DNA of 20,000 bases from Vermamoeba vermiformis (taxonomy: Eukaryota), in NCBI GenBank assembly GCA_045837725.1, contig JBEWZL010000073.1:172481-192480 (forward strand), given 5' to 3'. This document shows, one piece after another, positions 806 through 20,000 of this stretch. A program made the translations under genes and the position numbers. How positions within the stretch are numbered: the stretch's first letter is position 1; each line of letters begins with the position of its first letter. Below the pieces are notes generated by a model. It was not told the origin of the DNA. It did not search any database and worked only from the letters and a program-made list of their open reading frames with translations.

Positions 806-2124
806 TTAGTACAAAAAGTAATTATTATCCCTTCTTTCTAACTCCATAATAACAACTTGATATCGATTGTGGCGAGCTGATAGTGCACAAAAGCAGCTAA
901 TTACAGCCAATTTTTTTGCTTCAAGAGTCCATTCTGTGTGATTGGATCCCAAATTTCTAAGCCACTCCAACTCTGATCGTACAAGATCTTCCTGGCTCAT
1001 CCAACGAAGAGTTCGGAAATGGAAGTATCTTTTAAACATATCCACTTCTGCCATCGAATAGGCATTGCACTGTGGAAGACATTTTGTTTGTAGATACGAG
1101 TCTAAAAAAGAGTTTTGCCTCTGCATGGGATCGTCACAACCCCTTACCACTAACTGTAGCCATACTTTTCCTCCCGGTTTCAATAACTTATGTACTAATT
1201 TTACTGCTTTGTAACGATCATTTAGTGGAATGTGTTCAAACATTTCACAGCAAGAAATGCTATCAAACACTCCAATGCCTTTATCTTCTATGTCTAGAAA
1301 GTTTGCATAGATGGGAGTGCAATTCTCCAACTTTTCATCAGTAATTCGCTTTTCAATGTAGGCTAGCTGGTCTTTGTTGTAAACTATCCCTTTAACTTTT
1401 AAATGTGGATACCTTTTGGATGCACGCGTAATCATTGTTCCCCAACCACAACCAATATCCAAATAAGAAGTCTTTTTGTCAAGTTCCAAATACTCAAAGC
1501 ATTGGTTAACTCTTTTAGAATGGGCTTCCTCAGGAGTTTGAGAATCACTAGAAAAACTTGTGTGAGACCACATCTTTGGGGTTCCAATGAATTTTACAAT
1601 TTCCTTATATAATAAAAATTAATACTACAAGCAATTGATTTGTTCTTACATTTGAAGAATAAACCGCCAAATCAACTTTTGAATTGTTCTGCTCCCAAGA
1701 ATTTCGTTTTACATCATATGGGATACTTTGTGGAATCAATTAGCTGATGTCATGATTTTAAGGGAGAAACTTACCTGAGCAAAGCATACGCATCCATAAT
1801 GCTTAAATTCCGTATGTATTTTTCCCACTGTCCATTGCACAGACTAATAAGTTGATAGGCTTCCCAAATATCCCCATGTAAAAGAAGTTTGCCATTAGTC
1901 CATGCTTCCCAAAAAGGTCCATTATTCCCAATGGTTTTCAGATATCCTATTGCCTCAACACCAGAGAAGGACAATTTCAACTTATTTTTTGCATCACCAA
2001 AGGACAGGGGTTGGTTGAAATAATCTATTTTAATAAAAGCATTATTGATTGCAGGTTGCCAATAAGCCTTTAACAATCGATTGATGCGAGATCTTGAGTA
2101 GAAAATTTTGCTAATCAAACCCAT
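806..2124 (-). CDS. Cyclopropane-fatty-acid-synthase-like (CMAS family) SAM-dependent methyltransferase, ~407 aa; exons 2124-1775, 1725-1650, 1603-806 (alternative in-frame ATG at 2178)
   Basis: Introns 1726-1774 (GTAAGT..AAAG) and 1604-1649 (GTAAGA..TAAG) join the two ORF-track pieces in frame. Motifs: TPEEAHSKR, YLDIGCGWG, FDSISCCEMFEH, LLKPGG. Confidence 0.85.
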
Positions 2125-2711
2125 GGAGCAGTAGTTAAAAAAGAAGAACACCTTGACAAAAAAAAATAGAACAGACATGAGATAATATGTATTCAATAAA
2201 TTAAGCTAGTTTAAGTAATGTGTAGTAAAATGGGTTCCTAATAAAGGATAAAACCTGTCTGAATTTGCATTTTTTACCGCTTTAATTTTGTATTTAAAAT
2301 TTTTTCTTAACAAACATTTTTTTGAATGAAATTGACAGGGGAATAGCATTCTATTGGTTTTTTTATATTGGAATTTAGCTACTTTCGTCCCATAAAGCAT
2401 GTTTAAAGTTTAATATACCTAGTCAACTCTTAAAGTATGTTTTGAGAATCACTTATTCCTCTTTACATTATAAAGTCATTTTGTCCACTAACATATTAAG
2501 TTGGCACTCATTTATGATAAGGATAGTGTTCTTTTCTGCAGCTTCAGTAAATCAAGAAATATACCAAACAAACGTTTCATAGTGCAGCGTTTTTGGATTC
2601 CAATTTTTTTGGAATTATTTAGTAATAAGGATAATAACGCACTGTATTTCAACTAGAACTTTAATTAGAGAGAAAATTTTGTAAGCTTGCTGGTAGATGC
2701 AGAAAATTGCT

Positions 2712-4353
2712 TTACTTCTTTTGATAGGAGGAAATTATGGATGCCAAATTTTCATTTAGAACTATTGGTAATTTCGGGAATGTTTCTTGAAGTTTGCGCC
2801 ATGATCCTTCTTTGCAGATGATTGTTTTTGGAGCAGTCAGTCTTCCTCTTGCATAAAAATTTGCAAATGACTCACAAGTATCCAGAAGGTCATTTTTAAG
2901 TAATTCATCCAGTTGACTAGAGTCTACGTTGCCATCAATTGTTTCCAGATAAACCAAGTGACAGACCTTTGCAGGATCATAAAATATTCCATAGTTGCCT
3001 AAGCTAGTACCCAGAATTGAAAGTGTCTTTACCAAAGACTCCCTGTAATTGGCAACTGGTATTTGTTCACCAAAAAAATTGACCATGTCAGAAACCCTTC
3101 CGAAAAATTCAAACACTGGCATTTTGTTCTTGTAGAAGTCAACTATTTGGATGTAATCATCAGTTCGATACCGATAAAGCCCTGCATAGGTAGTAATTAT
3201 CATCAAATATACTTTTCCAAGCTCTGCATCATATATTTGCTTAATAATCCCAGTATCCTTTTCTTGCAATTCAACAAAAATTTTTCTAGGAAGGAATACA
3301 TATCGGGGGATGGGTTCTTCTAGAAAAATGTTCACTCCAATTATATCAGACTCCGTAGAACCAAACATTGGGCTCCAGATGAATACCCCAGGAGCAAGCT
3401 TCAGAAGATGAGCCTCCCAGTATTTTCCAGCCCTTGAGGTGCTGGCCATAATCATCTTTAAATTTGGCTGATATTGTGTCAATTAATTGATTCAATCATT
3501 ATCATTATTACTTTCTTACCCAAATATGCTTGGCAAATCCATCCTGTTGAAGAGACTCTCTAATTTCATCTGCCCGTTTGGGATCAGGAACAGCCAAAAA
3601 ATCTTTCAGAGGACCTTCAGGCAACTCCTCATTTATGCTTGCTGTTCCATTTTTAATGTCTTCAATAAGAGAGGATGCATTGTCCTTAATATATGTTATA
3701 AATGAAATTATGCTGGTGATAAATGTTGAACCAATCATTTGCAAGTCAGACCTTCGCAGTACACATAGAGCGCTAAGATAGCTTAAGTGTTTTTGAAGCT
3801 TATCATTCATATAAAGATCACGAGGAACTGCTAACTTCCATGAATCTGAAGGCGTCATGCAAATCTTGTACATTGTCATCTCCGTAGTGTACCATACTCG
3901 TGAAGGGTTAACAGGCTTGGATTTAAAAAGAACATGAGTGCAACCCTCAAGTGAAAAATTAGTTTTTGAAGTTAGCTCTTGAAGAGACAAAGCCAAATTC
4001 TGAAACTTTGTAGAGTATTGAACATTTGGGAAAATTTTCCGTTGCCCTGTGGTTCCTCCAGTACAAATAAAATAATCAACCTTTTCTGGAACCATTATAT
4101 TCTCCTCTCCAGAGAGCATTCTATCAACCAAAGGGCGGTATGTTTCCTCATATGCTGTTAGAGGAACTTGTTGATATTCTTCAATTGTGGTGATATGGTT
4201 TATTCCAAGCTGCTTTCCAAGAGTTGTCGATTTTCCATGTCTTAAAATATGAGACAGTGTTTGTTGAACAACCGCTTCAATATTTGCAATATCTTCATCA
4301 TAAACGCTGCGAGTGCAACTAGCTGCTGCCCAAGAGTCAAAGGCAATTGACAT
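2712..4353 (-). CDS. GH3-family acyl-adenylate-forming amido synthetase, 529 aa; exons 4353-3520, 3467-2712
   Basis: A 52-nt intron (3468-3519, GTAAGA..TCAG) restores HIW|PNLK. GH3 motifs: VPLTAYE, CTGGTTGQRKIFP, FGSTES, TTYAGLYRYRTDD, FEFFGR. Confidence 0.9.
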
Positions 4354-4476
4354 CGTTGTTTTTGTTTGTATAATTATAAGGTTTTTCTCTTATTATTACT
4401 GGAAAATATTTTATTATTAGTTGCTTCACTTAAAAAAGGCATGGCTAGTATTTAATTACCACAAAGTTGTGAAAAC

Positions 4477-4878
4477 ATGAGCCCCAGCCAAATTCTTGCA
4501 TTACTAGCAATTTCTTTTTTTGATTTGCTTGGAGCAGTTGCACTACTACTAAATCCAACATATTTTTATGATTGTAATGAACCGAAAGCATTTGAACGTG
4601 CAACACGGAGGTTAGCCCTTCTTCTTATTGGTCAATGTATGTAATTAGTAAATTTTTCTGTTAGTTAAAATGACACTTTAGGCCTTATACCATTAATTGC
4701 TATTATGGCAGAAACTACGATGTCCTTAATTTGGTTTTACTGCATTTATCACGTTGTTTTTTTGGCTGACAGCATATATGAGTACCTAAAGAAAGGAGGC
4801 TTTACCACCTTCAGAAGCAATGCAATTTTTCATGGCATATCATCAGTGGTGATTGTAATCATATTTATTTTTACGTAA
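4477..4878 (+). CDS. Small ~4-TM membrane protein, 118 aa; exons 4477-4636, 4682-4878 (missed by the ORF track)
   Basis: Intron 4637-4681 (GTATGT..TTAG) gives MSPSQILALLAISFFDLLGAVALLLNP...LALLLIGQCLIPLIAIM...LIWFYCIYHVVFLADS...AIFHGISSVVIVIIFIFT*, with four hydrophobic segments. Divergent from GH3 across 123 bp. Confidence 0.75.
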
Positions 4879-4924
4879 AATTGTTTTTCATAGCTCACAT
4901 TTCATAAAATGAACAATAGGCAAC

Positions 4925-5074
4925 TACCCCTAGGTTTTTTATGTAAGCTTCACGCTCTAGGGGTATTTCAGAACGAGGACTTCGAATTTGATGGTATTTT
5001 TAGGATAGGAAATTTTGCCTTAGGTTCTATGGATCCGGTCCCTATCCTAAATCTGCCCAAAAAATCGATTTTTT
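4925..5074. repeat. Cluster of short inverted repeats (possible TE remnant or regulatory hairpins)
   Basis: TACCCCTAG 4925-4933 / CTAGGGGTA 4957-4965; TTTAGGATAGG 4999-5009 / CCTATCCTAAA 5041-5051; palindrome AAAAAATCGATTTTTT 5059-5074. Confidence 0.5.
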
Positions 5075-5360
5075 TTGCTGGAAGTACGGGATATTCTTAG
5101 ATATATTATTTCCAACAACTTTTGTCTTAAAGATGTTTCACTCTTCAATAAATTTTTTTGGTGATCATGTTTTGAATGCAACCGGTAATAACTACTTGCA
5201 TTTATTATAAAGGGCTACCCCCAACAATTGATTAATGGAAATCCAAATTGACTATTGACAGTCAAAATAAATGAAAAAATTTAAATTTTGCCCAAAACTT
5301 AACCTAACTGGCTGAGAAAATCCCCATGGCTTTTTTTGGTAATTTGTAATATTTTATCTA

Positions 5361-7047
5361 ATGATTAGCAATCAGTATATTAAAAATTGGGTGCTTATTC
5401 CACAAGCCCTAAGGGCTAAAGATCCCTTGCCAGATGAATTGAAGTTTTTGGAAGAATGGAATGAGTTGCCAGGCTTGGGCAAGCCATCGAAGAATCTTTT
5501 TGAATTTGGAGATTTCCAATACTTAAGTAATTGACTCTCTGTTCAAATTAGTTTGATATTATAACATTTTATAGATCATGGTGCATTTGGAGTTGTTCCC
5601 CTGGATATTTTGAAGAAAATGGAAAGACTTGAAAAAATTAGGGTTGGCCTCCATAACTTTAAAATGAAAATCTAATTTATCTTGTAGAATGCCAATCCTT
5701 TTAAATTTCAAAACTACTATCTGCCATTGCTTCTTAGTTATGGCATTGCAGCATTGAGCTCGTTTGTGAAATCAGAGCCAGAATTAACTTTCTTTTGCGA
5801 GTCTGTTTGTAATGGTAAGATACTTGAGCCTTACAGTATTAAACCAACATTTTAAGGCATTTATAACTGCTTGATGACCATTATGCAACAAAAAGCTAAC
5901 CCAAGGGTGGCTTATGTCAAAGGATCTTATGGTAGGTAATCCATTTTTTTTTAATTTTTATTCTAATATCAAGTATATAAGTTGGGCTGGCATCAACTCT
6001 GGAGAGCTTAGCAGCAAAAAAAATGATTCAATTGACTCCCTTTGAATCTCAACAGCAAATTGACAGCAGCAAACTTTGTTCCTTTATTCAATGTAACAAC
6101 ATTGATGTACTTGTGCTTGAACACATAACAAATACAACTGGAGTTCTTAATAACGTTAAAGATCTTGTTAATCAAGTCAAATCTCAGTAATTAATTCACT
6201 GTAGTCAGTAATTGTGTGCTAACAAATGTTTAAGGGGAGTAATAACCATTATTGACGGTGCTCACGCCCCTGGAAACATTGACCTTGACATTGCTGGCAT
6301 CAATGCAGATTTTTATGTGGGATCATGTTATAAATGGCTGTTCAGCCTTCAAGTAAAGTAAAATCCAAGGCTACCTTATCTAACTTTGCTTAATAGGGCT
6401 GCTCGTTTGTTTGCATAAACAAAGATTGGCAAAATAAGGTACTTGTATTTGGTTTTTAAATCTCTATCTGACCTTTATTTTTCAAGTTCTCTCCACCATT
6501 TGATACTTTCATGAAGATAAACCAGCTCATTCCTTTTTACTGGAGAGGAGGAATAAATTATATGCCCTATATCTCTTGTATTTGTGGTATTAGCATGCTT
6601 AAACAGTATGGAATCCCTCAAGTTTGGCAGCATATTAAAGAAGTTAAGAACTCAATTGGTAAGTTATACCTCCTCTTATGAGATAATTATATATTTTAAC
6701 GGTTTATTAAATGAAGAAATCAATTTGACAAAGGAATGGGGAGCAGAAGTAATCAGTGCTAACGAGTTGTCATTTACTGTCCTTAAAGTAAACACTAACT
6801 TGAAAAAGGTAAGTTTGTCAAAATAAAAGTGTTTGATTAACTATTTGTCAAGAACTTAAACCTAGGAGTCTGCGCTCTTGAGATGACTGGCATTATTGCA
6901 GAAAAGCTGTCTTCTCAGATTTCAATGACAATTCCTAGCTTTTCTGAGGTTTTAGTTCGAATCTCTCTGAGTATTTACAGTACTGCAGATGACGTAAGTC
7001 AGATCCAGGATTCCTTCCTGGAAATTGTAAAGCAATTTGAAAATTAG
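5361..7047 (+). CDS. PLP-dependent class-V aminotransferase-fold enzyme (Egt2 C-S lyase / isopenicillin N epimerase / L-cysteine desulfhydrase-like), 10 exons
   Basis: Introns 5527-5574, 5643-5687, 5815-5856, 5932-5981, 6187-6234, 6353-6396, 6439-6486, 6659-6716 and 6809-6852 give a continuous frame. Motifs: YLNHGAFG, EHITNTTG, IIDGAHAPG, ADFYVGSCYKWL (PLP lysine), LVRISLSIY. Alternative start at ATG 5326 with one extra intron. Confidence 0.88.
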
Positions 7048-7202
7048 AAAGTTATAGCAGCAATAAAACTAGAACCATGTGCAAGTAAGATTTGATTGTT
7101 AGGGTTTATTGTCCTTATGAAATTTCAAATTTCATGAAACACAACTTGCAGACTATACGTACAAAATATTGCGCACTGGCACTGTGACGACTACAATTTA
7201 TT

Positions 7203-8172
7203 TTACAAATCGACTGGAATTGTTTTTGATGTGAAGTATGCTAATGTGAGGATGAGACCCTTTTCCAGTGGTATTTTTGGTGACCATTGCAGGAGTGATT
7301 TTGCTTTGTCAATATTTGGGCGTCTCATTTTTGGGTCATCGGGTCTAATGACTGGGTCTAAAAATGTGAAGGTTGACTTTGAATGGGTAAGGTCCACAAT
7401 AATATTAGCTATTTGTAAAATGGAGAGCTCCCCATCTGGGTTTCCCAGGTTCACCGGAGTGCTTTCATTTGATTGAGCAAGCAACCATAGCCCCTCTACA
7501 ATATCACTTACATAGGTGAAGCTCCTTGTTTGGTTGCCGGTTCCGTAGATAGCAAGTGGTTTATCAGTGAGGGCTTGTTTTATAAATGCAGGGACAACTC
7601 TACCATCATCTATGTTCATTCTAGGCCCAAATGTATTAAATATACGGGCTATTCTTGTTTTAAGATCAAAAGTTCGATGGTATGCCATAGTAATGGCTTC
7701 AGCATATCTTTTACTTTCATCATAACACGACCTTATGCCAATGGGATTGACATTTCCCCAATAATCTTCTGATTGAGGATGAAGGATCGGATCTCCATAC
7801 ACTTCTGAGGTTGAAGTAAGAACAAATATGGCGCTATTCTTTTTGGCAATCTCCAACATTGCTTGAGTGCCTTCCGACCCCACTTGCAATGTTTCAATGG
7901 GAAAAAGCATGTAATATTTTGGGCTTGCAAAACTAGCAAGATGAAAAACAAAGTCAAGCTTTCCTAAACTCTTCTATTACAGAGCTGCTAAGATTGCATA
8001 CATCTGCTTTGATAAAAGTAAAGAGAGGATTGGTAAGCAAATGTGAAATATTATCTTCTGTTGAGCATGCCAGATTATCCAGAACTGTCACTTTATGCCC
8101 TAGGCCTAACAAGAATTCTGCCAAATGTGAACCAATGAAACCAGCACCTCCACTTATTAAGGAAACATGCAT
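7203..8172 (-). CDS. uxs: UDP-glucuronate decarboxylase (UDP-xylose synthase)-like extended SDR, intronless, with a 1-nt frameshift near 7966-7968
   Basis: Motifs: GGAGFIGSHL, FHLASFASP, STSEVYGDP, HPQSEDYWGNVNPIG, YDESK, RIFNTFGPRM, QTRSF. Removing one T from GAG TTT AGG restores EELGKLDFVFHLAS. Confidence 0.88.
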
Positions 8173-8270
8173 TCTATTCTTATGTTTTTAATTAAAAATG
8201 GATCCAGACAAAAACTTTTCCTATTTTCTCCCCAAAATTGCATTGGCCAGGGACAATTCTCAAATATATA

Positions 8271-8912
8271 ATGACTAGTACAATAAATTGGCTGGATGTC
8301 AAAGAATTACAAGTTCAGGAGGGAACTTGCTATGAAGAAATCAGGCGATTTTATTTCGAGTATCTGTCAAAACCACATCCTATGCTAGGAAGATCTGGAG
8401 CAGTATGCCCTTTTATGCCATTATCATTAAAGTTTAACAAAGTGAAAACCCTGGTTTGGAAAAAGCAGGAATTTGATGAACAAGAGATTTTGGAGTTAAT
8501 GCAAGAAGTATTGGATGAGCTTAAACGGTGCACGATTGACTGTGCAATGGTGGTTTTCTTTCCAAATATTGTTAATACTCAAGATATTGCTTTATTTCAA
8601 GAGAAGTACAAATCTCTGGCTGTCGGAAAAGGATTGATGATTGGGGAGTTTTTTGAATCAAATCCGTCCCCTGGTTTGCACAATAAACATTGGCAGCCTC
8701 TTCAGAGCAAAGTACCTTGCTTGGCCTTTCGGAAAATGGTCAAGGAAGATTTTGCATTCATGCTTAAACCATCTTATCGGTGGTCACAAAAAGTGGTTTA
8801 CATTGCTTCTTACTTCCTTACAATGCATTCAACTGCTATCAAAAGGGTAATAATATTCGCATGCACTCTTTATTTATTTTATTTTCTTGGTTGTTTGTTA
8901 TCAGTTCAGTAA
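8271..8912 (+). CDS. DUF6875-like protein with a C-terminal hydrophobic (TM) extension, 213 aa, intronless
   Basis: YLSKPHPMLGRSGAVCPF and GLMIGEFFESNPSPGLHNKHWQPLQSKVPCLAFRKMVKEDFAFM resemble the mainly bacterial DUF6875 family as I recall it. First in-frame ATG is at 8271. Confidence 0.7.
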   Translation: MTSTINWLDVKELQVQEGTCYEEIRRFYFEYLSKPHPMLGRSGAVCPFMPLSLKFNKVKTLVWKKQEFDEQEILELMQEVLDELKRCTIDCAMVVFFPNIVNTQDIALFQEKYKSLAVGKGLMIGEFFESNPSPGLHNKHWQPLQSKVPCLAFRKMVKEDFAFMLKPSYRWSQKVVYIASYFLTMHSTAIKRVIIFACTLYLFYFLGCLLSVQ

Positions 8913-8940
8913 ATCAAAATGTGGAAAACAGCATTGCAAT

Positions 8941-9290
8941 ATTTTTCTTAGTCTCCATATGGGAGAGTCTTGTCCTCTCTGGTGAGATGAGTTTTTTAGT
9001 TATGCTGTTGCCAAACAAGGCTCGGTGAATGATATTTTCGACAAACTCTTTACAGGAATGGATGCCCACCCTCCTTTACATTATTGGCTAATATTTATTG
9101 TCGTTAAATGGGTTGACAATCCTTTGGGAGCCAGATTGCCATTCATTTTGATTGGAGTGCTACGTGGTTTTCTTCCAGCACTCTAATTGTAAGGGGCTGG
9201 GATGTCAAACAAAGTAGTATCTGCTATTTTTTTACTTTTGACTTCCATTCAACACTACTCAATTACTGGCGTCCATATCTATAATGGCAT
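8941..9290 (+). pseudogene. Degraded GT-C fold glycosyltransferase (PMT_2/ArnT-like), N-terminal fragment
   Basis: One frame reads PLW*DEFFSYAVAKQ...MDAHPPLHYWL...GARLPFILIG, containing the GT-C WxDE, DxHPPL and RLP motifs. There is an in-frame TGA at 8983-8985, a further stop at 9184-9186, and later frameshifts (HYSIT..RPY). Confidence 0.7.
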
Positions 9291-9394
9291 TAACGAAGCA
9301 TTCCATTGTCAAGCACCATTAATTGTATGGCCACAAAACTACGAAAACTAATTAACATAGTGCTGTTCTATTCCTAGTAATAATAATTATTATT

Positions 9395-9495
9395 TTAATT
9401 CTTTTTTTTCCTCTCCTTGCTTTTTCCCTTTCTTCTTTTTTTCTCTTTCCGTATATATATATATAAAAAAAGGTTTTTTTTTTTGGAAAAAAATT
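9395..9495. repeat. Low-complexity T/C tract, (TA)n microsatellite and A/T homopolymers
   Basis: Directly visible: tttttttttcctctcc..., gtatatatatatata, aaaaaaaggtttttttttttggaaaaaaa. Confidence 0.7.
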
Positions 9496-10046
9496 TGGTT
9501 CATGAAAAAAAATGAAAGCAGTTTGTTTCATGAAAGAATAACCCAGTTTTGGTTTGAATGGGTAGATAAAAAATGCCTGAAATTACACTGCTATTGATGT
9601 AAAATAATTAATTACCCAACATCATAATTGTTAATTATAAATTAGCATAGCTGCTTAATATAATAAGTATGGTGCTTTTCTGCCGAGTCCCTGAAAACAA
9701 GTTGGAATTTAAGCGTTAATTAATTATTCGTAGCATATTACTTGGATATTGCAGCAATAAATATTAACAAAAGATAGTTGTTGACTCTAAAATGAAGAAA
9801 AAATTAAGCTTATTTAATTGAAACCAACAACGACCAATCATGATCTGTTTAGATCCAAAAATTGCCTATTCTTTTTGCCGGGCAATTCAAAAAATTGCTA
9901 AGCCCTAAAAAATTACAAAAATTTGGCATGGTTCACCCTGTAATTTAGTACAAGTTCAAACAAGACTATCACATCCAAAAAAATAATGGAAAAATAAACA
10001 AAAATTAACCACCCATCCAAATAATAAGTCCGACACAGGATGTATT

Positions 10047-10383
10047 CATAGGGAGGAATTTGGCCGGGCCCTAACCCATCCAAGTGTCGAAGTCACGTTG
10101 AGGTGACTGACACGACCAAAACCATGTGATTCATCAATAGAAAGGTTGCAGGCATCAAGGCGACACCCCTCCATAAAGGAGACCGTACAACAAAAGAGTG
10201 TCCGCTACGGCAAGTGACAAGTCACTTTCTAGCCATCCAACTCAGTGCCAGTGAGAGTGCTGTTCCGAACCAGCGGTGTTGCCGAGGCAACACGACCTCC
10301 AGACGATACTCTGACCCACATCGTCGAGAATCAGCGCGTAACTTTCTCATTGTAGCGGCGCTAAGGCTTCACCCTTAGACGCC
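10047..10383. ncRNA. Candidate structured RNA / hairpin-rich GC-rich segment flanked by the 9-bp direct repeat GGATGTATT
   Basis: Stems at 10084-10113, 10212-10227, 10276-10293, 10302-10325 and 10356-10384, plus long-range CCGCTAC (10202-10208) / GTAGCGG (10352-10358). GGATGTATT at 10038-10046 and 10384-10392. No ORF in the track. Confidence 0.4.
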
Positions 10384-10439
10384 GGATGTATTACAAACAG
10401 TATTTATTATACTACCTACAGCAAGTTTGTTAACAAATT

Positions 10440-13400
10440 CTATAGTTTAAGCTTACGACAAACAGGTTTGTGTGTGTTCTTACAAGTACTGCACAGAAAA
10501 ATTGGTCTTTTTTTGTCGGAGCTGCATTTCCAACATACTGTGCTAATTTGCTTTCGTTTACGTGGGTTGCACGTTAGGCAAAAACCATTGACTCGTCTTT
10601 CAAAGACATCTTCGCTCTGAACTCGCACATGAGAAGAGAGACTTTTTGATTTCAGATCTTTTGCGACAATTATTCTTCGGGTTCTGAGAGATCTGTGTCT
10701 AGTTAACAGAGATGCATTTTTCTTGTTGCGTGCAGACTGCTCTTGACTAAGTTCATCCTTTAAAATTTGCAAGAAATCTCGAAATTGATCTTCGTCATCG
10801 TTCTGAACTTTCTTATAGTAGCGATAGCACTGGTATGAATTCCAAGTGATTATATTTATAATATTTTCCCATACTACTTGTGTCCATTTTGTTAATCTGA
10901 ATGGCCAATCAAACGTATGAATTTGTCTTGCCGCCTCGTCGACAAATCCTTTGGTCTTTGTGTATTCTTGGACAATAAGTGTCTTTGTACTCTGCATTTA
11001 CAACTAAATTAGTAACTTAATGATGCAAGCATAAGAAGCTTACTGAAGTTGACGGTACTCCTTGACACAGATCTGTCGCGGATGATGACGCTGCAATGAA
11101 ATTAGATAAACACTTTGATTAATATTGAACTAACCATCGACGTAATTGGAATAGAGATTCATAATTGCATTGTTATCGCGGAAAGAGTGAGCGATAATCG
11201 GACCAGCAGTGCCTTCTTTTTCAAACGTCAAGTGTTGCCCTGGTTCTTGTAGAGGATTTTGCAAAGTACCAAATATATATGAAGGAGCATTTTTCTTTGC
11301 CGACAACAAGAATTTAATGCCTTGTTCATCCAAAATAGTAGCCGTCTCTTCCGCACCCCATTTGCTATCTGTTATAATCACGTGGCCTGGCTTGTGATTG
11401 TTCAATTTCTCGGCTAGCTCTAACAGCTGATATTTAGGAGGCAGACATAGACCCAAGAATATATCGAAGTCCCAAATGTAGTAAGATTCATCGGCGGCCA
11501 AGTAGAGTAAGACACCGTTTGGATGTGGCTTGCTTGGAATGAATTGCTGAGTTACGTTAGTTAAAATGTATTATCTAACGATAACAAGTACTTACTCGGG
11601 CATAAAAGCGGCCCAAAAACGGCAAGATGGTTTCATCAAAGGTAATTTTTTGAGATGGAGACCAATTATTTTGGCATCGTTGAGCTACTTCTTGAGTAAC
11701 TTTGTCAATATCAAAGTGGAAATAATGCATAATCTGTTCGAATCGATCTCGGCCCATTTTTGACGATATCCATTCGTTGCCATACAAGGGATCTTTGATA
11801 GTCCAGTAATCTCTGAGGCGACGACCTTTAACACAACGACTTGCGATACCAATGGCAATGAATATATCAAATTCTGGCAGCGTAAGTGGTTTCCAATTTG
11901 TTCTTTGCTTTTGAAAAGTAACTTTGTCTTCTTCGGAAGGTTCAAACTCGGTACTAAAATATTCTTCCAAGCATGCTTTACGTTTGAAACCCAACTTGGT
12001 ACCGTTAGCAATCCTAATTGTGATCAGAATGTTTGTTTTCTCGTTAGCTTATGTAATATTTACTTTGTATTTTTGTGTCGGCCAAAGTGAGGTGAGTGAA
12101 ACGCATGCGTTCTTGCATAACTTCAGAAAATGAAAGACTGGCATAACGGTTTATATCTTCGACCATCTGTAAACGGGTTTGCTCTGCGGTATTCATTAAT
12201 TCTGAGAATATTCAACACTCGAATGAATGATATGTACCAGGCAAAAAGCGCGAAAAGATGCTAGCGTTGGTCATAGGCTGCTTATTGGTGGGCCCGCTAA
12301 CCAACGTACAAAAGGAGGTACGAACAAAACCTTTACTTGTTTTATCTCGTATTTGCCAACCTTGATTGGATAGTGCATGCGGAGATTGGAAGTACTTATT
12401 CATTATTAATAGTGCATTTGCCCGAATGTCCGACTCGCATATCCAATTTGTTTGCACCTTCTTATTTTTCCAATCGATGAGCCATTCCCATAGATCCTAG
12501 CCAAAATAAGACAAACATTCGATTATCTCGCATACGTACATTATGGAAGCGTACTTTGTAAATGCACTTGATTTGCTCAAGAGCTATTTTGCTTCCCGGT
12601 GCCACTTTATCCACCATAAGGAGATCGTCGGTTACAGCCTTAACAACAATATGCGAGTCTGGCAGCTGCCACTCCTTATCTATCGAAGGTGTCTGAAGCT
12701 TTGGTTGGCCTTTTTCCAATTGCTTGGGTTCTTAACGGTGCATTAGAATTAAATTAGCCGCGTTGCACTTACTTTTTTTAGGAGGAGCAATTAAGTTGTC
12801 TTCTGTTTCCAACAGGTTGCATGCGACACTGATTTTACGTTTCCTTGTTTGCATCGTACAGGAAGCAGGAACGGCAGTCTTCAACGGAAATTGAATGCCG
12901 ACTTCGGCTTGTTTAATGTAAACCACTGCACTGGCAGAGCAAACACCACCACTTAACTGCGAAAGAATAGCAACACGCTCCTAATTGACATTTAGTCCAA
13001 GATCGCTTGTTGGAAAAAACATACCCGTGTAACTTTAGCATCATTATAATTGTTCCAATGTAAAGCACAGCGTTCGTTGACAACAACTCCATAATGTCCA
13101 TTATTGTGAGTTTTTCCATCGTGCCAAATTACACCATAAAGTAGGTACAAAGTTCCTTCAAAGTGAACGGATGTTTCGATTGTCAAACGTCGAACTTGCT
13201 TGTGTTCATCGAGCTCGGAGAAACGATTGATTCGAATCAATAACAGTTTTGGGTGGTTCAACACCTGTTTGCGTAATTGGCAATCCTTTTTATCATTAGA
13301 TCGAGTACTTCGTTAACAAACATTGATAATAATTACCTTTGCTTGATATTCTACCACTTCCAGAGCAAAAAAATCGTCAATTCCTTGTTGAACACTCTGA

Positions 13401-14289
13401 ATGGATGGCTTAAAGTAGATGTCGATCCCTGTACTACGTTAGTTATGTGTCACAAAAACAATACGTACAGTTGATCTGCTCCACTCTTCCGTCGTTCACT
13501 TGAGTAGAATTTTCATCAAATATCGCCGTACTGAATTGGATAGCTAGTTCTCGCCGTGAATCTACCAAATTTAACAAATCTTGTAACAATAGGGTAGCGT
13601 CTTGTTGTCCAGCTTGCACAATTGTTCGTACATTAGAATCGATAGCGAGAGTAGTTGCTAGTCTTTCAAACAGAACTGCAGCATCGACCGGTTGGCTTTG
13701 TTCAACGAATTTGAGTAAATACTCGTTGACTAGCATCGCAATCTCGGTAGTTGACTGTTCAAACAGTTGCTGTAGACACGGGACCTTTGCAATAAGTACC
13801 AAGCATACGTGCAGAAAACAACGAACACTTGGGTTAACAAACCCAAATTTAAACAGTGGAGACTATCGCAGAAAATTAGGATTACTGCACAAGATTATTA
13901 TTCTTACCTCAAATTCAAATGGATATAATTGTATCTTTCCTATCTTATGCGAAGTAAAATTGCCTCTATTTTTTGGCTGGCTGTAAATTTGTTAGCACAG
14001 AAGACAGATCGACCGTCGAATTTTCTTACTTTAAAATGTTATTAATGATCGCAATAAATTCATCTTTTGCTATATTGCCGTGATATGCTTCGTAGACCCA
14101 GTGAATGTCGCCCATTGAGAGACCACGCTCATTTGTTTCGTGGAAGTGGATCAACGACTGCATGACATTTGGAGAAGCTACAAAACGTTGTAGATCGGTG
14201 TCTGAAGATACGACACATTAAAAATAATTTTTTAATAGTGCAAATAACATAGCCTTACCCGAAAAGACACGAACAAGCGACATCTGCAT
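10440..14289 (-). CDS. USP (peptidase C19)-chromodomain-piggyBac transposase (DDE_Tnp_1_7 + Cys-rich domain) fusion, ~1076 aa, 14 exons, one unresolved 1-nt frameshift between ~11900 and 12130
   Basis: Introns 14202-14258, 13981-14029, 13863-13907, 13429-13468, 13286-13336, 12981-13024, 12731-12772, 12497-12539, 12184-12237, 12014-12063, 11547-11595, 11091-11134, 10992-11043. USP: GFVNPSVRCF, GQQDA, YGVIWHDG..GHY..WNNYNDAKV. Chromo-like: EWLIDWKNKKVQTNWICESDI. piggyBac: INRYA, MGRDRFEQI..FHFD, FDETI, FIPSKPHPNG, ITDSKW, YTKTKGFVD, CLTC..CWKC..LCSTCKNTH. Confidence 0.82.
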
Positions 14290-14537
14290 CCAAAAAAAAT
14301 AGTACCTTAGTATTGGCTAAAAAATGTAGTAAATTACTCTAGAACGTCCAAATTTAATTGAGATTTAAGCCGTTTGGGTAAAATAAAAAATATGAATATT
14401 CGATTTCAAATTAGGATCGGGGTCATTTACCCTACTGAAGGCCGGCAATTGGTGGTATCTTGCAACAACATAAGCGTCGAACTGGTTCAAAACAGAAAAT
14501 GGCGAATTACTGAAGAAAAAGCACGTGAGTATTTATT

Positions 14538-16623
14538 TCAAGGAATTCCATCGAGATCACTCAGCTGGTTGAAAGCGGCAATGAATGCATTGGGATCGAA
14601 CTCAGGAACTTCAAAAAGTCCAAGCGAGCAAAGCAACACTTCATAATGGAGCTGTAGGTACTGTAGCACCAGATCCAGTGGCTGCTCGCCAAATATTGTC
14701 GCCATAGCAAGCCCACCTGCGTCACTTAACTCTAACTCATCCACAACACCGGCAACTCGTTGGTACAATTCGCAAACTTGGACCAGCAATGGATCTGCAA
14801 AACTCAGCGTCAACAAAGTGCATGATAAAAATGACTCCTCTTACTGATCGTTGGTACTGAATGAGCCAAGGGGTGTTCGCATAGGAATTTATGACGATTG
14901 AATAGCTCAAATGTGTAGAACGGCTCGACGGAGAATTCAGTGTATGCATCCAGGTTCACTCGACGAACTAACCACGTGCCTAATGAATCATTACACAAAT
15001 TGACACGGTGCGAAAGTTGCTTACCGATGAATTGGAAGACATCTTCTTGATATTCAACCGCAATTTCGAGAGGAAGACAGTGATAACAATTGAGCCGCAC
15101 CATGTCATTCCTTGCTGAATCTGCCCCGCGATTGACGACAAATGAGCCATCAATCATCGTGCCGCCCGCCCCACCAACTGTTATAACCCCCTCGCGCCAA
15201 TTACTCCAATTATTACCAGGGAAATTTTTCCGAAGTAACATCGACATACAACCTGGAGTGAATTAATCCATCGCGCCGTTTAATTTGCAGAATTGGAATT
15301 ACCTATTTGACTGAGGCCATTAAAGGAGGAGTCTATTGTTAAGCCACCAGTAAATTCTGCTTTGGCCAAATCGAACTTGGAATACAGCTCCCCAACCTGA
15401 GCTTTCGTTATTTTGATTGAAGTGATTAAACGTCAAGATTGTCACTTACTTTAAGATGTTTTCTCGGGCCGAAGATACATGATTTACCAACGGCACATTC
15501 ATGCAACTGCTCGATGAGCAAAACTCTGCAAGACGCACAATACAACAGTTGATTGTTGTGCAAAAGCAAGTGAGCAAACGCCCAACAACCTCCGGTGGGG
15601 AAAAATATATCAATCAAAGGCTTAATAGGTTCCGTATTCCGAGCCAGTCCACTGCGCGAGAGTTTTCGTTTCTTGGCATTTGTCGAAGGCCGCAGTGCTC
15701 GCCTCCACTGCATTAGCTTTTGTTTGTTGGTTGTCCAGGTCGACAAAGAATAACCAAGAGTTGTATTTGCCTCTATAAAATAATTAGTGGAAGTACAGAC
15801 TAAATATTAACAGCTTACCACAGTTGCGTTTCTCGGACTCGTAAATGTTTACATCTACATTACGAATTGTCGCCACCCAACGTATAAATCTGGAATATAC
15901 ACCGACTACTCGATGTTTCAAGTATGATTGCATTCGTTTTGGTTGTAAAAGCATCATATTGTCCACGAGCGGAATGTCAACGTCCCCTAAGCACAATGCA
16001 TTAGAAATTAATTGTTGCGTAAACAGTAACGCACTCACGAGTCCCAGTCTGCGAACGCTCCTGCACCACAAAGCGCCACCCCGGTGGGGCATCACAGTTA
16101 GCCACCAATTCATCTGGATCTACGAAACCAGAGACCGTAAACACAACAACGTCTCTTGCATTGCCCAAGTACTTGTCATCTAATTGATAAAATAAATACA
16201 AATGCAATAACAATAGTTTGTGTTGCATACTATCAGCATGCAATCCCATGGCGGGGAATACTTCTCGGTTATTTGCCCGAGCTAGTTCTATGTCATCCTC
16301 CGATAAAGGCGGATAGGCAGTAAACATTACACAAGTTGAGTGACTGCAAAAGTAGCCAAAGTCGCGCAGTTTTCGGAATAGTAGCTGGATGCACTTGGGT
16401 GTTTGATTCGTAGAATCACGGTAGAAATTGCTTCATAGTAGTTGTTAGAATAAATAAAATTGATATATTGAATCATACTTATAGGAGATACCAGTGCCAG
16501 TATTTCCGTATACTGCATACAGCCGTTTGGTAACTGCAGTCAACCGATCATTGAGGATGAGTATTCAGACTCGTCAAAAAACTGGTGATAGACCAGAATA
16601 TCAACGCCGAAAGCTGAGATCAT
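14538..16623 (-). CDS. AlkB-family 2OG-Fe(II) dioxygenase with C-terminal extension (possible SRA-like domain), ~578 aa, 8 exons, 1-nt frameshift near 16555
   Basis: Introns 16431-16478, 16180-16230, 15987-16038, 15773-15818, 15397-15449, 15253-15302 and 14795-14844 join five ORF-track fragments. Motifs: KRLYAVYGNTG..SY, MGLHADNDKYLG (HxD), IPLVDNMMLLQPKRMQSYLKHRV (distal His), RWVATIR (Rx5R). Confidence 0.78.
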
Positions 16624-17047
16624 TTCCGTAGCCCTGTGTCACGAGATCATTATAATTATATATAGCCTTAGGAGTAGGCTGGTTTAGGCTTATAGGCTTT
16701 TGACATTAAATGATGAAACTTGCCGTGTAATGCGTATACAAAATAAAAAAGTATATACAAAAATTAAAGTTTGATTGCTTATGGTTCCATGTATGCTTTT
16801 TTGAAAGACATTAATAGGAAACACCTATTAATATACTTGTATTGTGTAGTGACATCCTACAAGTTGCTGGCTGGTCTTAATGGGGAAAGAGTGAATGTGT
16901 ATACGAAACCTGTTATGTATACATAAAAATGCACCTGTGTCTCTAGGACTTGGGAAGAGAATTTGCTTTAATTTTTAAGCACATGTTAGACGAACATTAT
17001 CAATGAAACACTGAGGAGAGTTTACAGTACAAGAGAGACGTTTATTT

Positions 17048-17430
17048 TTACATAACATGTACATTTTGTAAATTGTATATACAAATTAGTTTGGTATATA
17101 CGTTCCACCGATTGTGTATACAAAATGGTGTCCCCTTCCTTTGTGCTGCCCCTTGGCGGGAATTATTGAAGAATGCATTAATTCCCCACACTACTAATGC
17201 TGTTAGTCATATATCTTACACCCCAAACCTTTCGACTTACCTTGTTGCAACAGAGGGTTTGCTGGTCCCCCTCTAGCAAACCCACGATGCGCACTTCTTT
17301 CAAACCCTCGTAAACCTCGTAGCTCGCGTGTTACGACCTAAACTAACCCTTCAGCAGTTTGGAAAAGGTAAGGTTTTACGTACCGAAATACGTTGCAGTA
17401 CTTTTTGGACTGTGGCGACAGCTGAGCGTC
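17048..17430 (-). other. Possible spliced small gene fragment or spliced non-coding transcript
   Basis: Two intron-like segments of the typical size: 17194-17240 (GTAAGT..GACTAAC..TTAG) and 17338-17383 (GTACGT..TTAG). Removing them gives an open frame AVATVQKVLQRISVVTRELRG...NVHVM*, but no convincing start codon was found. Confidence 0.3.
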
Positions 17431-17852
17431 AACAGGCCAGGTTTGATTTCAAAGCATGCTACACTTGAATTTCGCCGTGTAGTGCGTCACTTGAGTGATG
17501 TAAAACCTGAATCCAAAACACAGTAATAGAAAATTATTCGTAGTTGTAAGTCGTTCCTAAGTCTTACACGCTATTAACGATGTTAAGTGGGTGGATATTC
17601 ATTTAATAATAAAAAATTATTCCAGAAGTAACGGTGAAATGAAAAATATTTTATTGACGTCAGTATGTCAGACTGCCAGTCACGAATTAAAGTACCTTAT
17701 AATCCGTTTCCGAGACAGCTTTGTGCAGTACATTGAAATTTAATTGGTTTGTTCCAAAGAGCTCTGGTTGTAAAGGCTTAGACACGGTAACAAAAAAACG
17801 AGGAAAAAAATTAAGTTTTTTAACTTCAAACAACAAAACACGACCACAAACC

Positions 17853-18146
17853 ATGGACTGGAACCCAGTAAATTACCCCACCTGCAGTTGCATCAGAGTT
17901 TGCGTTACCGACGCTGAAAACCGCAAGTATGTACGACTCTCCGTTGAAGAGGCAAGACCGTTGGTTCAACTTGCTCCAGCAACTGCACTTGACCAAGTGA
18001 TCTACGAGGCATGGGCTATAACCAAAGCTGGAAAAGTCTGGATCCGAGCCGAGCTACACAAAGAAGCTCCTATAGTCTCCCATGTTCTTCCATGGAACAG
18101 CGATCTCTTTTCCAATGTCATTGTATTCTCCACTTTATTTGAATAA
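17853..18146 (+). CDS. Hypothetical protein, 97 aa (MDWNPVNYPTCSC...)
   Basis: ATG in ACCATGG context after a CA-rich leader, GC-richer than its flanks, stop codon overlapping AATAAA. No recognisable family. Confidence 0.5.
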   Translation: MDWNPVNYPTCSCIRVCVTDAENRKYVRLSVEEARPLVQLAPATALDQVIYEAWAITKAGKVWIRAELHKEAPIVSHVLPWNSDLFSNVIVFSTLFE

Positions 18147-18579
18147 ATCAATTTTCTAATTACTTGGTTAATTATGATCGTGAGCCTCTTTTTTCGTATA
18201 TATTATGATATGTGTATACAAAATAATGTACACACCGAAATAGCTTTCGGATCTGAACAAGAAGTGAATGTTCTTATTAATCATTCTGTAATAAGTCGTT
18301 GTTTTACATCAAACAATACATAGAAGATTAAATATAAAATTGTGAATTATTCGCTAAAAATCTCGCGTAAAATCTCGATCATCGTGTCGGAGTTCAATTC
18401 ATCAATTCCTACCTCTGAAAAATGTCCTCCCAATCAATTGTATTTATTACATCCATTTCGTCATAATAATTATTAACGGGCACCTAAATTAATAATAGAA
18501 AGGGTACTGCAGTACGAAAGAGAGCAGGTAAATTTTGTATACCAGAAATTTAGTGTACACAGTATTCTGTGCGCACTAT

Positions 18580-19421
18580 TTATTTGGCGGTTTTAAAGGA
18601 GTTCCAATCCGTACAAAATACAATCGATTGCCTATCTCCTTCAACAACAGGAAGGTTCTCGTGCAGCATCTTCTGCGATTGGAAGAAAATGACGTCGCCC
18701 TTTTCAAAGTGGATGCGGATCTTCTCGTCTCGGAAGACCAAATCTCCTCCTGTGAAGTTTCCAAATGGTAGAACGCAACACAAGCCATCAGGACGATCCA
18801 TGTGGTCGTAATGAGGGCCTGTTGTTCCCCAGTTGACGACGCACATTGAAAACGACTTGCCAACAAGTCGCGGGCCCGGAGTCTCCACGTCGCAGTATTC
18901 CTCGTACAGCTTCTTGCTCGTCTGCTTGAACAGCTTGTCCACTATTCTGAACAGCTCCATGTTCAGCACGTTGTAAAAGAATCTGCCACCTTGCTTAATG
19001 CAGCAGGCCATTCCGTCGCGCGAAAGGAACTGGCGTTTACGGTAACGCCGCCAATAACCGAGATGGTAGCTTCTGGTGTTGCGGCAAGCAGGACGACCGA
19101 TGGCCAGTTTGAGGGCACGAGAAGATTTCACTAAGTTGTTACAATACTTGAGAGGAATTTTCTTTTTGAAAAAACGGATGGCCACATTGCCTTCGGCATC
19201 CCAAAAAATAAAGCTAATATTATTAAATTAAAATAAGCACGTGTAAAATAATACTATAAAAATGCTACTTACTCGTCGTTAACTACCTGAAATTCTTTGA
19301 GGATAGGGTCATCGGCCGAGAGTGGTTGCACGTTCGGATCAAGTTTTCGCCTTGATTTCAAAATTATCTTACGCCTGAATACCTGACGGATGCGCCCGCG
19401 ACGTAAATTCTTGAGACCCAT
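18580..19421 (-). CDS. TET/JBP-family 2OG-Fe(II) nucleic-acid dioxygenase, 260 aa; exons 19421-19273, 19213-18580
   Basis: Intron 19214-19272 (GTAAGT..TTAG) gives an intact frame. Motifs: FSMCVVN, PHYDHMD (HxD), CCVLPFGNFTGGDLVF, KGDVIFF..MLHENLPV (distal His), GDRQSIVF (R..S, not the AlkB Rx5R). Basic, NLS-like N-terminus. Confidence 0.82.
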
Positions 19422-19925
19422 GCGTGCGTACTCAACAAAAAAAACTTATGTGGTGGACGGTGTAAGCGAAAATAAACTTTAGCCTACACAAAATCTCGTG
19501 TGAGATACACGAAACTAACCGTTGTGCATATACAGAATGTTTGGTTTTCTGGTATGCACAGAACAATTTTTTTAAGTAACGAATGAACGTAACCACCTGG
19601 CGCGGTCAGTATGTTTAAACAGTCAAGCAGATCCCGGTGATGGCCTTTTTTGGTAAAATTGAAGTTCGCTTCGGTATCTTCGTACTATCACGGGAAAATC
19701 AATTGTAAGTAATTTAAAACTGTTTGCCGTAGTGTGCCCGCAGCTTAAATGCACGGGAACCCGGGAAAAAATATTGTCAAAATAGCGCATCGGGAATAAA
19801 TTCGTAAAAATTTTTAAACTCCCAAAGATCGCATCTTCTTTGCAAATTTAATCCAAAATCCACTTCTTAACGATGCAGAAAATAGCAGTATTGGGCATGA
19901 ACAGCCGAAAACTGTGCAACACATT

Positions 19926-19943
19926 GTTTCGTGTACACGAAAC
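19926..19943. promoter_or_regulatory. Perfect 18-bp palindrome GTTTCGTGTACACGAAAC
   Basis: Self-reverse-complementary; shares the GTRYAC core of the dispersed motif. Confidence 0.45.
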
Positions 19944-20000
19944 GCCTCGATAACTCAAAGTGGTGAGTGATTGGCCCGTTGCCTTTTGAACAACGGACCA

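Follow-up and report, generated by a model that had tools for sequence, protein, structure and literature searches.

Fusions of a divergent SAD (SRA) domain to an AlkB oxygenase of the AlkBH3 clade have been described in several fungi (Iyer, Zhang and Aravind 2016, PMC4738411), and the passages of that paper dealing with them suggest that the reader may recognise N6-methyladenine (6mA). A later study reported, according to its abstract, that TET/JBP genes are carried by ten lineages of fungal DNA transposons (Kojima 2025, PMC12730594). Transposons with DNA-demethylation enzymes of their own are a recent theme, which has so far rested on these TET/JBP genes in fungal elements. Here, we describe a 20,000-nucleotide (nt) stretch of Vermamoeba vermiformis DNA (assembly GCA_045837725.1, contig JBEWZL010000073.1, positions 172,481 to 192,480), which will be called the window and in which all coordinates below are given. 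Its minus strand carries, at 16623-14538, a spliced gene termed gene X, whose predicted protein of about 560 residues we read as two modules, a candidate AlkB-type oxygenase followed by a divergent SRA domain. The first-pass annotation of the window, made by a model from the letters alone, had proposed such a fusion on a mobile element and had pointed to the fungal AlkB-SRA proteins as a precedent, which is indeed found in the sections on AlkBH3-clade SAD/SRA fusions in PMC4738411.

The gene X family is real and expressed and has no annotated members; the AlkB-SRA architecture is known from fungi, but not in a transposon setting or with a linked deubiquitinase. The best explanation of the whole, to which we assign a probability of about 0.5, is that gene X encodes a two-module AlkB-SRA protein that is carried as cargo by a piggyBac transposon and would oxidise methylated DNA.

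A divergent SRA domain in the C-terminal half

The SRA fold recognises a modified base in DNA by flipping it out. An SRA-like fold had been proposed for the product of exon 14845-15252 from a loose pattern match, and structural modelling bore this proposal out. The AlphaFold model of the window's exon has a mean predicted local distance difference test score (pLDDT) of 74 and a predicted template-modelling score of 0.69, and a Foldseek comparison with the PDB returned SRA proteins in all of the first 16 places, with E-values of 1.0e-3 to 5.6e-2, template-modelling (TM) scores of 0.42-0.56 and probabilities of 0.85-1.00. The matches that follow the SRA proteins are dihydrofolate reductases and other unrelated folds, with probabilities of at most 0.13. 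The pLDDT falls below 50 at residues 80-86 of this model, inside the 45-nt segment 14980-15024 that is read as an intron below.

Relatives of the exon were sought with HMMER among 1.84 billion cluster representatives, and eight proteins were found. They range in length from 65 to 260 residues, were all taken from contigs (metagenome, Logan, ENA, JGI or NCBI) and lack usable names; 13 invariant positions are common to the eight and the window's exon. The AlphaFold model of a relative, P0015, built on 14 sequences, reached a mean pLDDT of 59, with core blocks at 77-86, and gave 23 PDB matches at E<=1e-3, the best at E 2.2e-5. The matches listed for P0015 are SUVH5, KRYPTONITE, SUVH6, SUVH9, NP95/UHRF1, TagI and MspJI, together with two oocyte-lattice entries for which the chain identity is not given. 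The SRA domains of SUVH5, KRYPTONITE (SUVH4), SUVH6 and UHRF1 (NP95) are the best structural matches of both models, and the identity to the plant SUVH and UHRF1 domains in the structural alignments is 9-19%. Further evidence came from Pfam, in which SAD_SRA (PF02182) matched 3 of the 14 family members (P0005, P0012 and P0013, which form one 90% cluster and count as one sequence) with 22.5-23.4 bits and E-values of 5.6e-5 to 1e-4. These matches cover profile positions 13/30-143 of 148, all of them below the 30.7-bit cut-off, and the other 11 members gave no SAD_SRA match.

Several results weigh against the assignment. The model of the window's exon has no PDB match at E<=1e-3, its Foldseek E-values being borderline (1e-3 to 5e-2); the exon itself has no Pfam match at E<=1; and the SRA models rest on 14 sequences. 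A search of PDB sequences with the family profile found no SRA chains, an ESM Atlas look-up of the exon returned no usable match, and a word-index search of longer proteins with the family profile, which is weak evidence of absence, found no relative. Taken with the structural matches, the modelled C-terminal module (~15396-14845) is a divergent SRA domain, a fold assignment that we consider sound; the SRA-like pattern is well beyond chance, and gene X SRA is a very divergent member of the fold.

Gene structure, splicing and transcription

The stop-free frames between 16623 and 14538 on the minus strand alternate and can be joined by splicing alone. A first model, made by script, linked the frames via in-phase GT-AG introns of 46-53 nt, and two in-frame, stop-free introns, 16180-16230 (51 nt) and 14980-15024 (45 nt), were added later, having been revealed by comparison with relatives. 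The 45-nt segment is absent in the relatives P0005 and P0015, and the metagenome contig L001 has an intron at that place. In the final model, a single open frame of 543 codons runs through nine coding pieces (Table 1), separated by eight short GT-AG introns (45-53 nt), to the stop codon TGA 14540-14538. The motifs quoted in the first-pass annotation (ATG 16623, the stop codon, HAD, the second His, R-x5-R, KKRK, CxxC-x8-HxC and the SRA-like peptide 15226-15025) lie at the places that it gave, and its bounds for exon 14845-15252 equal those of our model, except that the probable 45-nt intron was read through.

Evidence for transcription was obtained from public sequencing runs, of which 24 were listed as matching the stretch and four were aligned over window positions 6500-20000. 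The contigs of one run, X7, match the window with 0-2 differing letters in each piece and skip exactly four of the eight introns, namely 16431-16478, ~15987-16038, 15773-15818 and ~15397-15449, with CT..AC ends on the plus strand. Gene X is therefore transcribed and spliced in at least the X7 sample. The large RNA runs X21-X23 hold 0, 0 and 1 reads over the same 13.5 kb (6500-20000), ordinary host genes included, and they are no test of gene X expression because the host genes there are also nearly free of reads. X21-X23 bear the same species label as the DNA run that matches the window best, so that either the label covers another organism or strain or the genes are silent there.

That both halves lie in one multi-exon gene, as first annotated, holds with respect to these four spliced introns and to the exon order, which is the same in the metagenome contigs L001 and L002. 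An alternative reading is that the AlkB-like and SRA-like parts are usually separate products, with a short isoform ending in the retained intron 15253-15302 and the fusion being an annotation artefact. The sole X7 contig at this intron runs through it unbroken (piece 15241-15394) and ends 12 nt later at 15241, and a form that retains the intron would stop the frame before the main SRA exon. In addition, no read or contig among those aligned joins the AlkB-like exons to exon 15252-14845, and three introns (16180-16230, 14980-15024 and 14795-14844) have no RNA coverage, all of which tells against a single continuous protein. However, the first strands of the SRA domain (15396-15303) lie upstream of the intron, and this same contig shows them joined by splicing to the exons on the AlkB side. 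The junction 15253-15302 itself is correct, because in the relative P0016 a single uninterrupted frame covers the sequence on both sides of it. Moreover, no ATG-initiated frame or promoter-like gap lies between the halves, and their order and spacing are kept in L001 and L002. Contigs that end just past the junction may be what mixed spliced and unspliced forms yield in an assembly graph. Separate products are thus, in our estimate, highly improbable, and one spliced gene for both modules is preferred.

The window's copy of this gene appears to be damaged at its 5′ end. The frame that starts at ATG 16623 stops after 27 codons, and the long frame begins at 16564, one base out of register. At window position 16554, a second X7 contig, from an expressed and near-identical copy, contains 48 letters that the window lacks and one base that is repeated; in L001, the matches on either side of ~16554 lie 49 nt further apart than in the window. 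Inserting 49 nt puts ATG 16623 in frame with all downstream coding pieces. The ATG is thus out of frame because about 49 nt are missing near 16554, and by this comparison the window copy has lost 49 nt near its start, unless the assembly is in error by this length; in its present form, it probably yields no full-length protein. Both this frame shift and the retention of intron 15253-15302 in the sole RNA contig that reaches it had gone unnoticed in the first-pass annotation. Slightly further upstream, an X7 transcript contig departs from the window at 16633, and its next 18 letters occur nowhere in the window; an AG acceptor is present at 16634-16635 on the minus strand. These letters come either from a further 5′ exon located upstream and beyond the window or from a leader added by trans-splicing.

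A candidate AlkB-type oxygenase in the N-terminal half

For the N-terminal module (16564-15819), the most likely identity is that of a highly diverged AlkB-type Fe(II)/2-oxoglutarate (2OG) dioxygenase, a candidate assignment that, judged from the motifs and profile comparisons below, has about one half of the probability on its side. Its motifs occur in the order known from AlkB. The first blocks are a Tyr-Gly...Ser-Tyr block, a strand with Cys-hydrophobic-...-Tyr-Pro and the sequence Gly-Leu-His-Ala-Asp, and these are followed, across the 51-nt intron, by an acidic turn containing Leu-Gly, a hydrophobic strand running to Ser-Gly, a Leu-rich strand, Gln...Lys-His and an R-x5-R heptad with a central Thr. 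The AlkB-like continuation after His-Ala-Asp (16240-16232) is visible only when the in-frame segment 16180-16230 is removed. In AlkB, R-x5-R makes contacts to 2-oxoglutarate and to the substrate. The heptad (15882-15862) is present in the window and in L002, and its second Arg is a His in L001 (L001 1599-1763); the candidate metal and 2OG ligands are all conserved in L002 and all but one in L001. Between the window and L001/L002, the N-terminal half is identical at 112 of 192 positions, and the motif blocks are its best conserved parts, as read by eye from the alignment rows.

The similarity to AlkB was examined by profile comparison, using alignments built from E. coli alkB, 80 relatives and divergent Pfam-defined members of one bacterial phylum (without the G029 locus). 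A local hhalign comparison of the window, L001 and L002 with 34 bacterial AlkB sequences gave a score of 28.9 (P 9e-4, probability 23%) over 55 columns, placed on AlkB positions 91-147, and the match comprises three AlkB blocks including HxD. None of 261 column shuffles reached this score (mean 13.7, maximum 27.9), and true superfamily pairs score 20-38 with alignments this shallow. The same query scored 10.4 against 2OG-FeII_Oxy_3, 11.7 against PhyH and 13.3 against the window's own Tet open reading frame. With a bacterial AlkB hidden Markov model (HMM), HMMER gave 3.5 bits, which 5 of 2000 shuffles reached. In addition, when hhalign was run globally without constraints, each of the five candidate ligands (HxD, the second His and R-x5-R) fell on its counterpart in AlkB; for the His at 15915-15913 and for R-x5-R, this global alignment is the only one that places them so. 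The motif set, as far as these scores go, is only weakly beyond chance.

A different explanation, which we hold to be tentative yet worth weighing, is that gene X encodes an SRA reader whose N-terminal 200 residues form a non-dioxygenase domain of another fold, with HxD, His and R-x5-R being coincidental. Such a protein would be a reader or recruiter, e.g., one that guides the neighbouring deubiquitinase or transposase to methylated DNA. The following results lean towards it and away from an oxygenase. Pfam 2OG families, including 2OG-FeII_Oxy_2 (PF13532), gave no match to the unspliced translation of any exon, even at E<=10; PDB sequence searches with exon 2, the exon-2 profile and the exon-3 profile found no AlkB or ALKBH chain at E<=10; and a narrow AlkB HMM gave no match. 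The best local match has only 23% probability and requires a 17-residue insertion, and the best shuffle (27.9) nearly equals the real score. Furthermore, the C-terminal half of the AlkB candidate, which holds the second His and the Arg pair, scores 11.3 when taken alone, a value reached by 148 of 258 shuffles and thus indistinguishable from them. A weak Pfam match of another kind, to TNP-like_RNaseH_C over 26 residues (E 0.0095; 16.4 bits, the cut-off being 24), lies in 16231-16429 on the minus strand; it is probably noise, though this is the sole family that touches the exon. On the other hand, of the families tried, AlkB alone gives the hhalign match, which spans three ordered AlkB blocks, the two independent statistics give ~0.1-0.4%, the candidate ligands are kept in L001 and L002 as described above, and the AlkB-SRA architecture is already known in fungi from the relevant sections of PMC4738411.

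The AlkB-type oxygenase stays our preferred reading of the N-terminal module, as a lead only. Of the first-pass proposal that an ALKBH2/3-style catalytic set appears after splicing, the motifs and their AlkB-like order stand, whereas the identity as a dioxygenase stays a candidate one, the Pfam and PDB sequence searches having given no match and the profile-profile comparison one weak match. Relatives of the N-terminal exon were not found among longer proteins or proteins of similar length in word-index searches, which are weak evidence of absence, and the ESM Atlas look-up of exon 2 returned no usable match.

Other readings of single motifs were tried and dropped. The Gly-rich block 16525-16480 was considered as a degenerate P-loop of a helicase or ATPase, and this was rejected for want of a Lys, a Walker B motif and a Pfam match in the exon-1 frame; we take the block to fit the Tyr-Gly...Tyr block upstream of the AlkB core in ALKBH proteins. 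Readings of this block and of the Cys/His patch as GIY-YIG or HNH nuclease motifs were likewise dropped, as the motifs are incomplete by eye. The two halves of the protein are separated by KKRK and this CxxC-x8-HxC-x4-C patch (Table 1), both of which are kept in L001 and L002. From their sequence, KKRK may be a putative nuclear-localisation signal and the patch a putative small zinc knuckle.

Neighbouring genes and the proposed transposon setting

Downstream of gene X on the same strand lie a gene for a UCH-type ubiquitin hydrolase and a gene for a piggyBac-type transposase. Pfam UCH matches 12992-13312 with E 6e-9, the gene is collinear with L001 3143-4581, and the residues of its Cys-box and His-box look intact by eye in both lineages (see below). 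The end of gene X at 14538, as first annotated, stands: the conserved exons 14291-12913 belong to the separate UCH gene with its own ATG. The transposase was recognised by DDE_Tnp_1_7 (PF13843), which matches three consecutive frames within 12048-10440 with E-values of 1.2e-16, 5.8e-8 and 8.7e-4 and covers profile positions 28-349. The order of gene X, UCH and the N-terminus of the piggyBac transposase is kept in L001 and L002, with several intron positions in common, and the collinearity of L001 855-5563 with window 16659-11973 is confined to the protein level. As L001 and L002 hardly differ from each other, they and the window make two lineages in all. The G+C content is 0.31-0.37 in the left half of the window and 0.39-0.45 from ~9500-10000 onward. 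Because the linkage is conserved, the copies are broken in different ways and the G+C content steps up, the block is read as a transposon with passenger genes, and the sequence evidence suggests that gene X is cargo of a piggyBac-family DNA transposon.

Three observations speak against this reading. Neither terminal inverted repeats nor TTAA-flanked ends were found in the window, whose right side may fall short of an end that lies beyond base 20000; only one copy is visible in the window; and the copies in L001 and L002 seem to have degenerated, their SRA exon being interrupted by an in-frame stop (L001 2600-2707, L002 2859-2966). Gene X, UCH and the piggyBac-type gene might instead form a conserved host cluster, e.g., around a domesticated transposase, rather than the cargo of an active element. 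The missing terminal repeats and target-site duplication in the window fit such a cluster, as does the similarity to L001/L002, which is at the protein level only (34-58%), as diverged orthologues would also show. However, the copies have decayed differently (the 49-nt deletion in the window, the in-frame stop in L001/L002 and the Arg-to-His change in L001), which is typical of transposon copies, and the G+C content shifts where the block begins. Word-level matches to parts of the gene also occur in runs of six organism codes and in water metagenomes, the alignment being available for X7 only and the others being shared words. A host cluster is accordingly judged decidedly unlikely, and carriage by a piggyBac-family element is retained. 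The earlier proposal of a mobile element thus survives in the piggyBac linkage that is conserved in two other contigs, while ends of an element have not been found.

Additional features were noted in the same region. At 10005-10018, where the G+C content rises and ~430 nt past the transposase stop, TTAA is followed by CC, a candidate left end with no inverted partner in the window. A Tet/JBP-like small dioxygenase gene with two exons lies at 19422-18580 on the minus strand, 2 kb upstream of gene X. It matches Pfam Tet_JBP with E 2.4e-7 and 30.5 bits (cut-off 34.9) and 2OG-FeII_Oxy_3 with 27.4 bits, just above the cut-off, and its nearest solved structure is the Naegleria Tet-like dioxygenase (E 0.012). 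Since the L001 similarity ends at the start of gene X, short of this gene, it may or may not belong to the same element. Between 16731 and 18222, the 12-nt motif TGTRTATACAAA occurs seven times with one mismatch allowed, against 0.48 expected, and 0 of 200 shuffles reach seven; the copies might serve as subterminal or as regulatory repeats. Between gene X and the Tet gene, the plus strand has an open frame of 147 codons (17703-18146) with no significant family, its best match being Hyd_WA at E 0.048.

The window as a whole is eukaryotic DNA with short introns. Its left half (806-8912) holds ordinary host genes for a CMAS-type methyltransferase, a GH3-family protein, an NAD-dependent epimerase/dehydratase, read as UDP-glucuronate decarboxylase-like, and a DUF6875 protein. 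No relative was found among the IMG/VR viral contigs, and Rfam found nothing in the window.

Table 1. Coordinates of gene X and the linked genes in the 20,000-nt window
Feature	Position	Strand	Remarks
5′ coding remnant	16543-16623	-	ATG 16623, 27 codons, TGA; out of frame with the rest
Coding piece 1 of long frame	16479-16564	-	Conserved Tyr-Gly...Ser-Tyr block, ~90% identical in L001 and L002
Intron	16431-16478	-	Spliced out in X7
Coding piece 2	16231-16430	-	Ends Gly-Leu-His-Ala-Asp; HxD at 16240-16232; placed by hhalign on AlkB 91-147
Probable in-frame intron, 51 nt	16180-16230	-	GTATGC...TTAG; unaligned in L001/L002, both interrupted there; no X7 contig coverage
Coding piece 3	16039-16179	-	Candidate strands after HxD
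Coding piece 4	15819-15986	-	Second His 15915-15913; R-x5-R heptad 15882-15862; both flanking introns spliced out in X7
Coding piece 5	15450-15772	-	KKRK 15674-15663; CxxC-x8-HxC-x4-C patch, CxxC-x8-HxC at 15539-15495
Coding piece 6	15303-15396	-	First strands of SRA-like domain; read with the next piece as one unbroken frame in P0016
Intron, 50 nt	15253-15302	-	Retained in the sole X7 contig reaching it; junction backed by P0016
Main SRA-like exon	14845-15252	-	Coding pieces 15252-15025 and 14979-14845; includes probable 45-nt in-frame intron 14980-15024
Last coding piece, C-terminal tail	14538-14794	-	Ends TGA 14540-14538; similar tail in P0005
UCH-type ubiquitin hydrolase gene	12913-14291	-	Own ATG; conserved N-terminal exon 14217-14026
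piggyBac-type transposase gene, several exons	10440-12496	-	N-terminal exon common to L001 5009-5275

Comparison with known systems

The closest described architecture is that of the fungal AlkBH3-SAD(SRA) proteins. Like these, to the extent that they are set out in the AlkBH3 passages of PMC4738411, gene X would combine a candidate AlkB-type oxygenase and a divergent SRA reader in one polypeptide, and the role suggested there is reader-guided demethylation, possibly of 6mA rather than 5-methylcytosine (5mC). Unlike the fungal fusions described in those passages, gene X has a piggyBac transposase and a UCH hydrolase as linked neighbours, and it is only a candidate member of AlkB. No sequence relative with the fungal architecture was found, the search of 1.84 billion representatives yielding the eight short matches and the word-index searches of longer proteins yielding none.

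With respect to its reader, gene X resembles the SUVH and UHRF1 proteins in fold, as described above, and differs from them in that its partner domain, where theirs is a SET or RING domain, is a candidate oxygenase. Modification-dependent restriction enzymes of bacteria, which have SRA-like readers, are also found among the structural matches. TagI, MspJI, AspBHI and SauUSI join an SRA-like reader to a DNA-acting enzyme, as gene X may do; in contrast, their partner is a nuclease and they are prokaryotic defence genes, whereas gene X is a eukaryotic spliced gene with a candidate oxygenase.

The fungal TET/JBP transposons (PMC12730594) are comparable in the setting, in that a DNA transposon carries a candidate oxidative DNA-demethylation enzyme with which, by the account in that article, it presumably escapes silencing by methylation. 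The Tet/JBP-like gene 2 kb upstream of gene X resembles their cargo, although it may lie outside the element that carries gene X. Unlike in the fungal elements, the cargo here is a candidate AlkB-SRA protein with a UCH hydrolase; piggyBac is not among the ten lineages in the abstract of that article, and piggyBac, SRA, AlkB and ubiquitin do not occur in its text. A literature search in open-access full text (without supplements) gave no relevant title on piggyBac carrying a JBP/dioxygenase, AlkB or a ubiquitin hydrolase.

Proposed mechanism and implications

If gene X encodes an AlkB-SRA protein on a piggyBac transposon, as we propose, its SRA module would find and evert a methylated base (5mC or 6mA), and its oxygenase module would then oxidise the methyl group. 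A silencing mark would thereby be removed from the element's own DNA or from nearby chromatin, in the manner proposed for the TET/JBP genes that fungal transposons carry.

A wider reading, which we consider unlikely, is that this piggyBac-family transposon carries a full anti-silencing cassette (SRA reader, AlkB eraser and UCH) that mirrors and undoes the UHRF1-type maintenance of methylation in the host. In such a cassette, the SRA reader would find methylated or hemimethylated element DNA and the fused AlkB-type oxygenase would erase the mark, while the UCH deubiquitinase would act on histones, taking off the ubiquitin by which the maintenance methyltransferase is recruited; a second eraser might be encoded by the Tet/JBP gene upstream. 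If true, this reader-eraser-deubiquitinase module would have no described precedent on transposons, piggyBac elements included.

What the finding means depends on the front domain. Should it turn out to be something other than an oxygenase, all that is left is an orphan SRA-domain protein beside a transposase. If it is an oxygenase, the cargo would be a guided eraser, i.e., a reader fused to an eraser, rather than a lone enzyme, piggyBac would be a new transposon superfamily for the demethylation strategy, and the linked deubiquitinase would hint at interference with the histone-ubiquitin step of methylation maintenance. As the SRA module has no annotated relatives, its base specificity, whether for 5mC, 5-hydroxymethylcytosine (5hmC) or 6mA, is directly testable.

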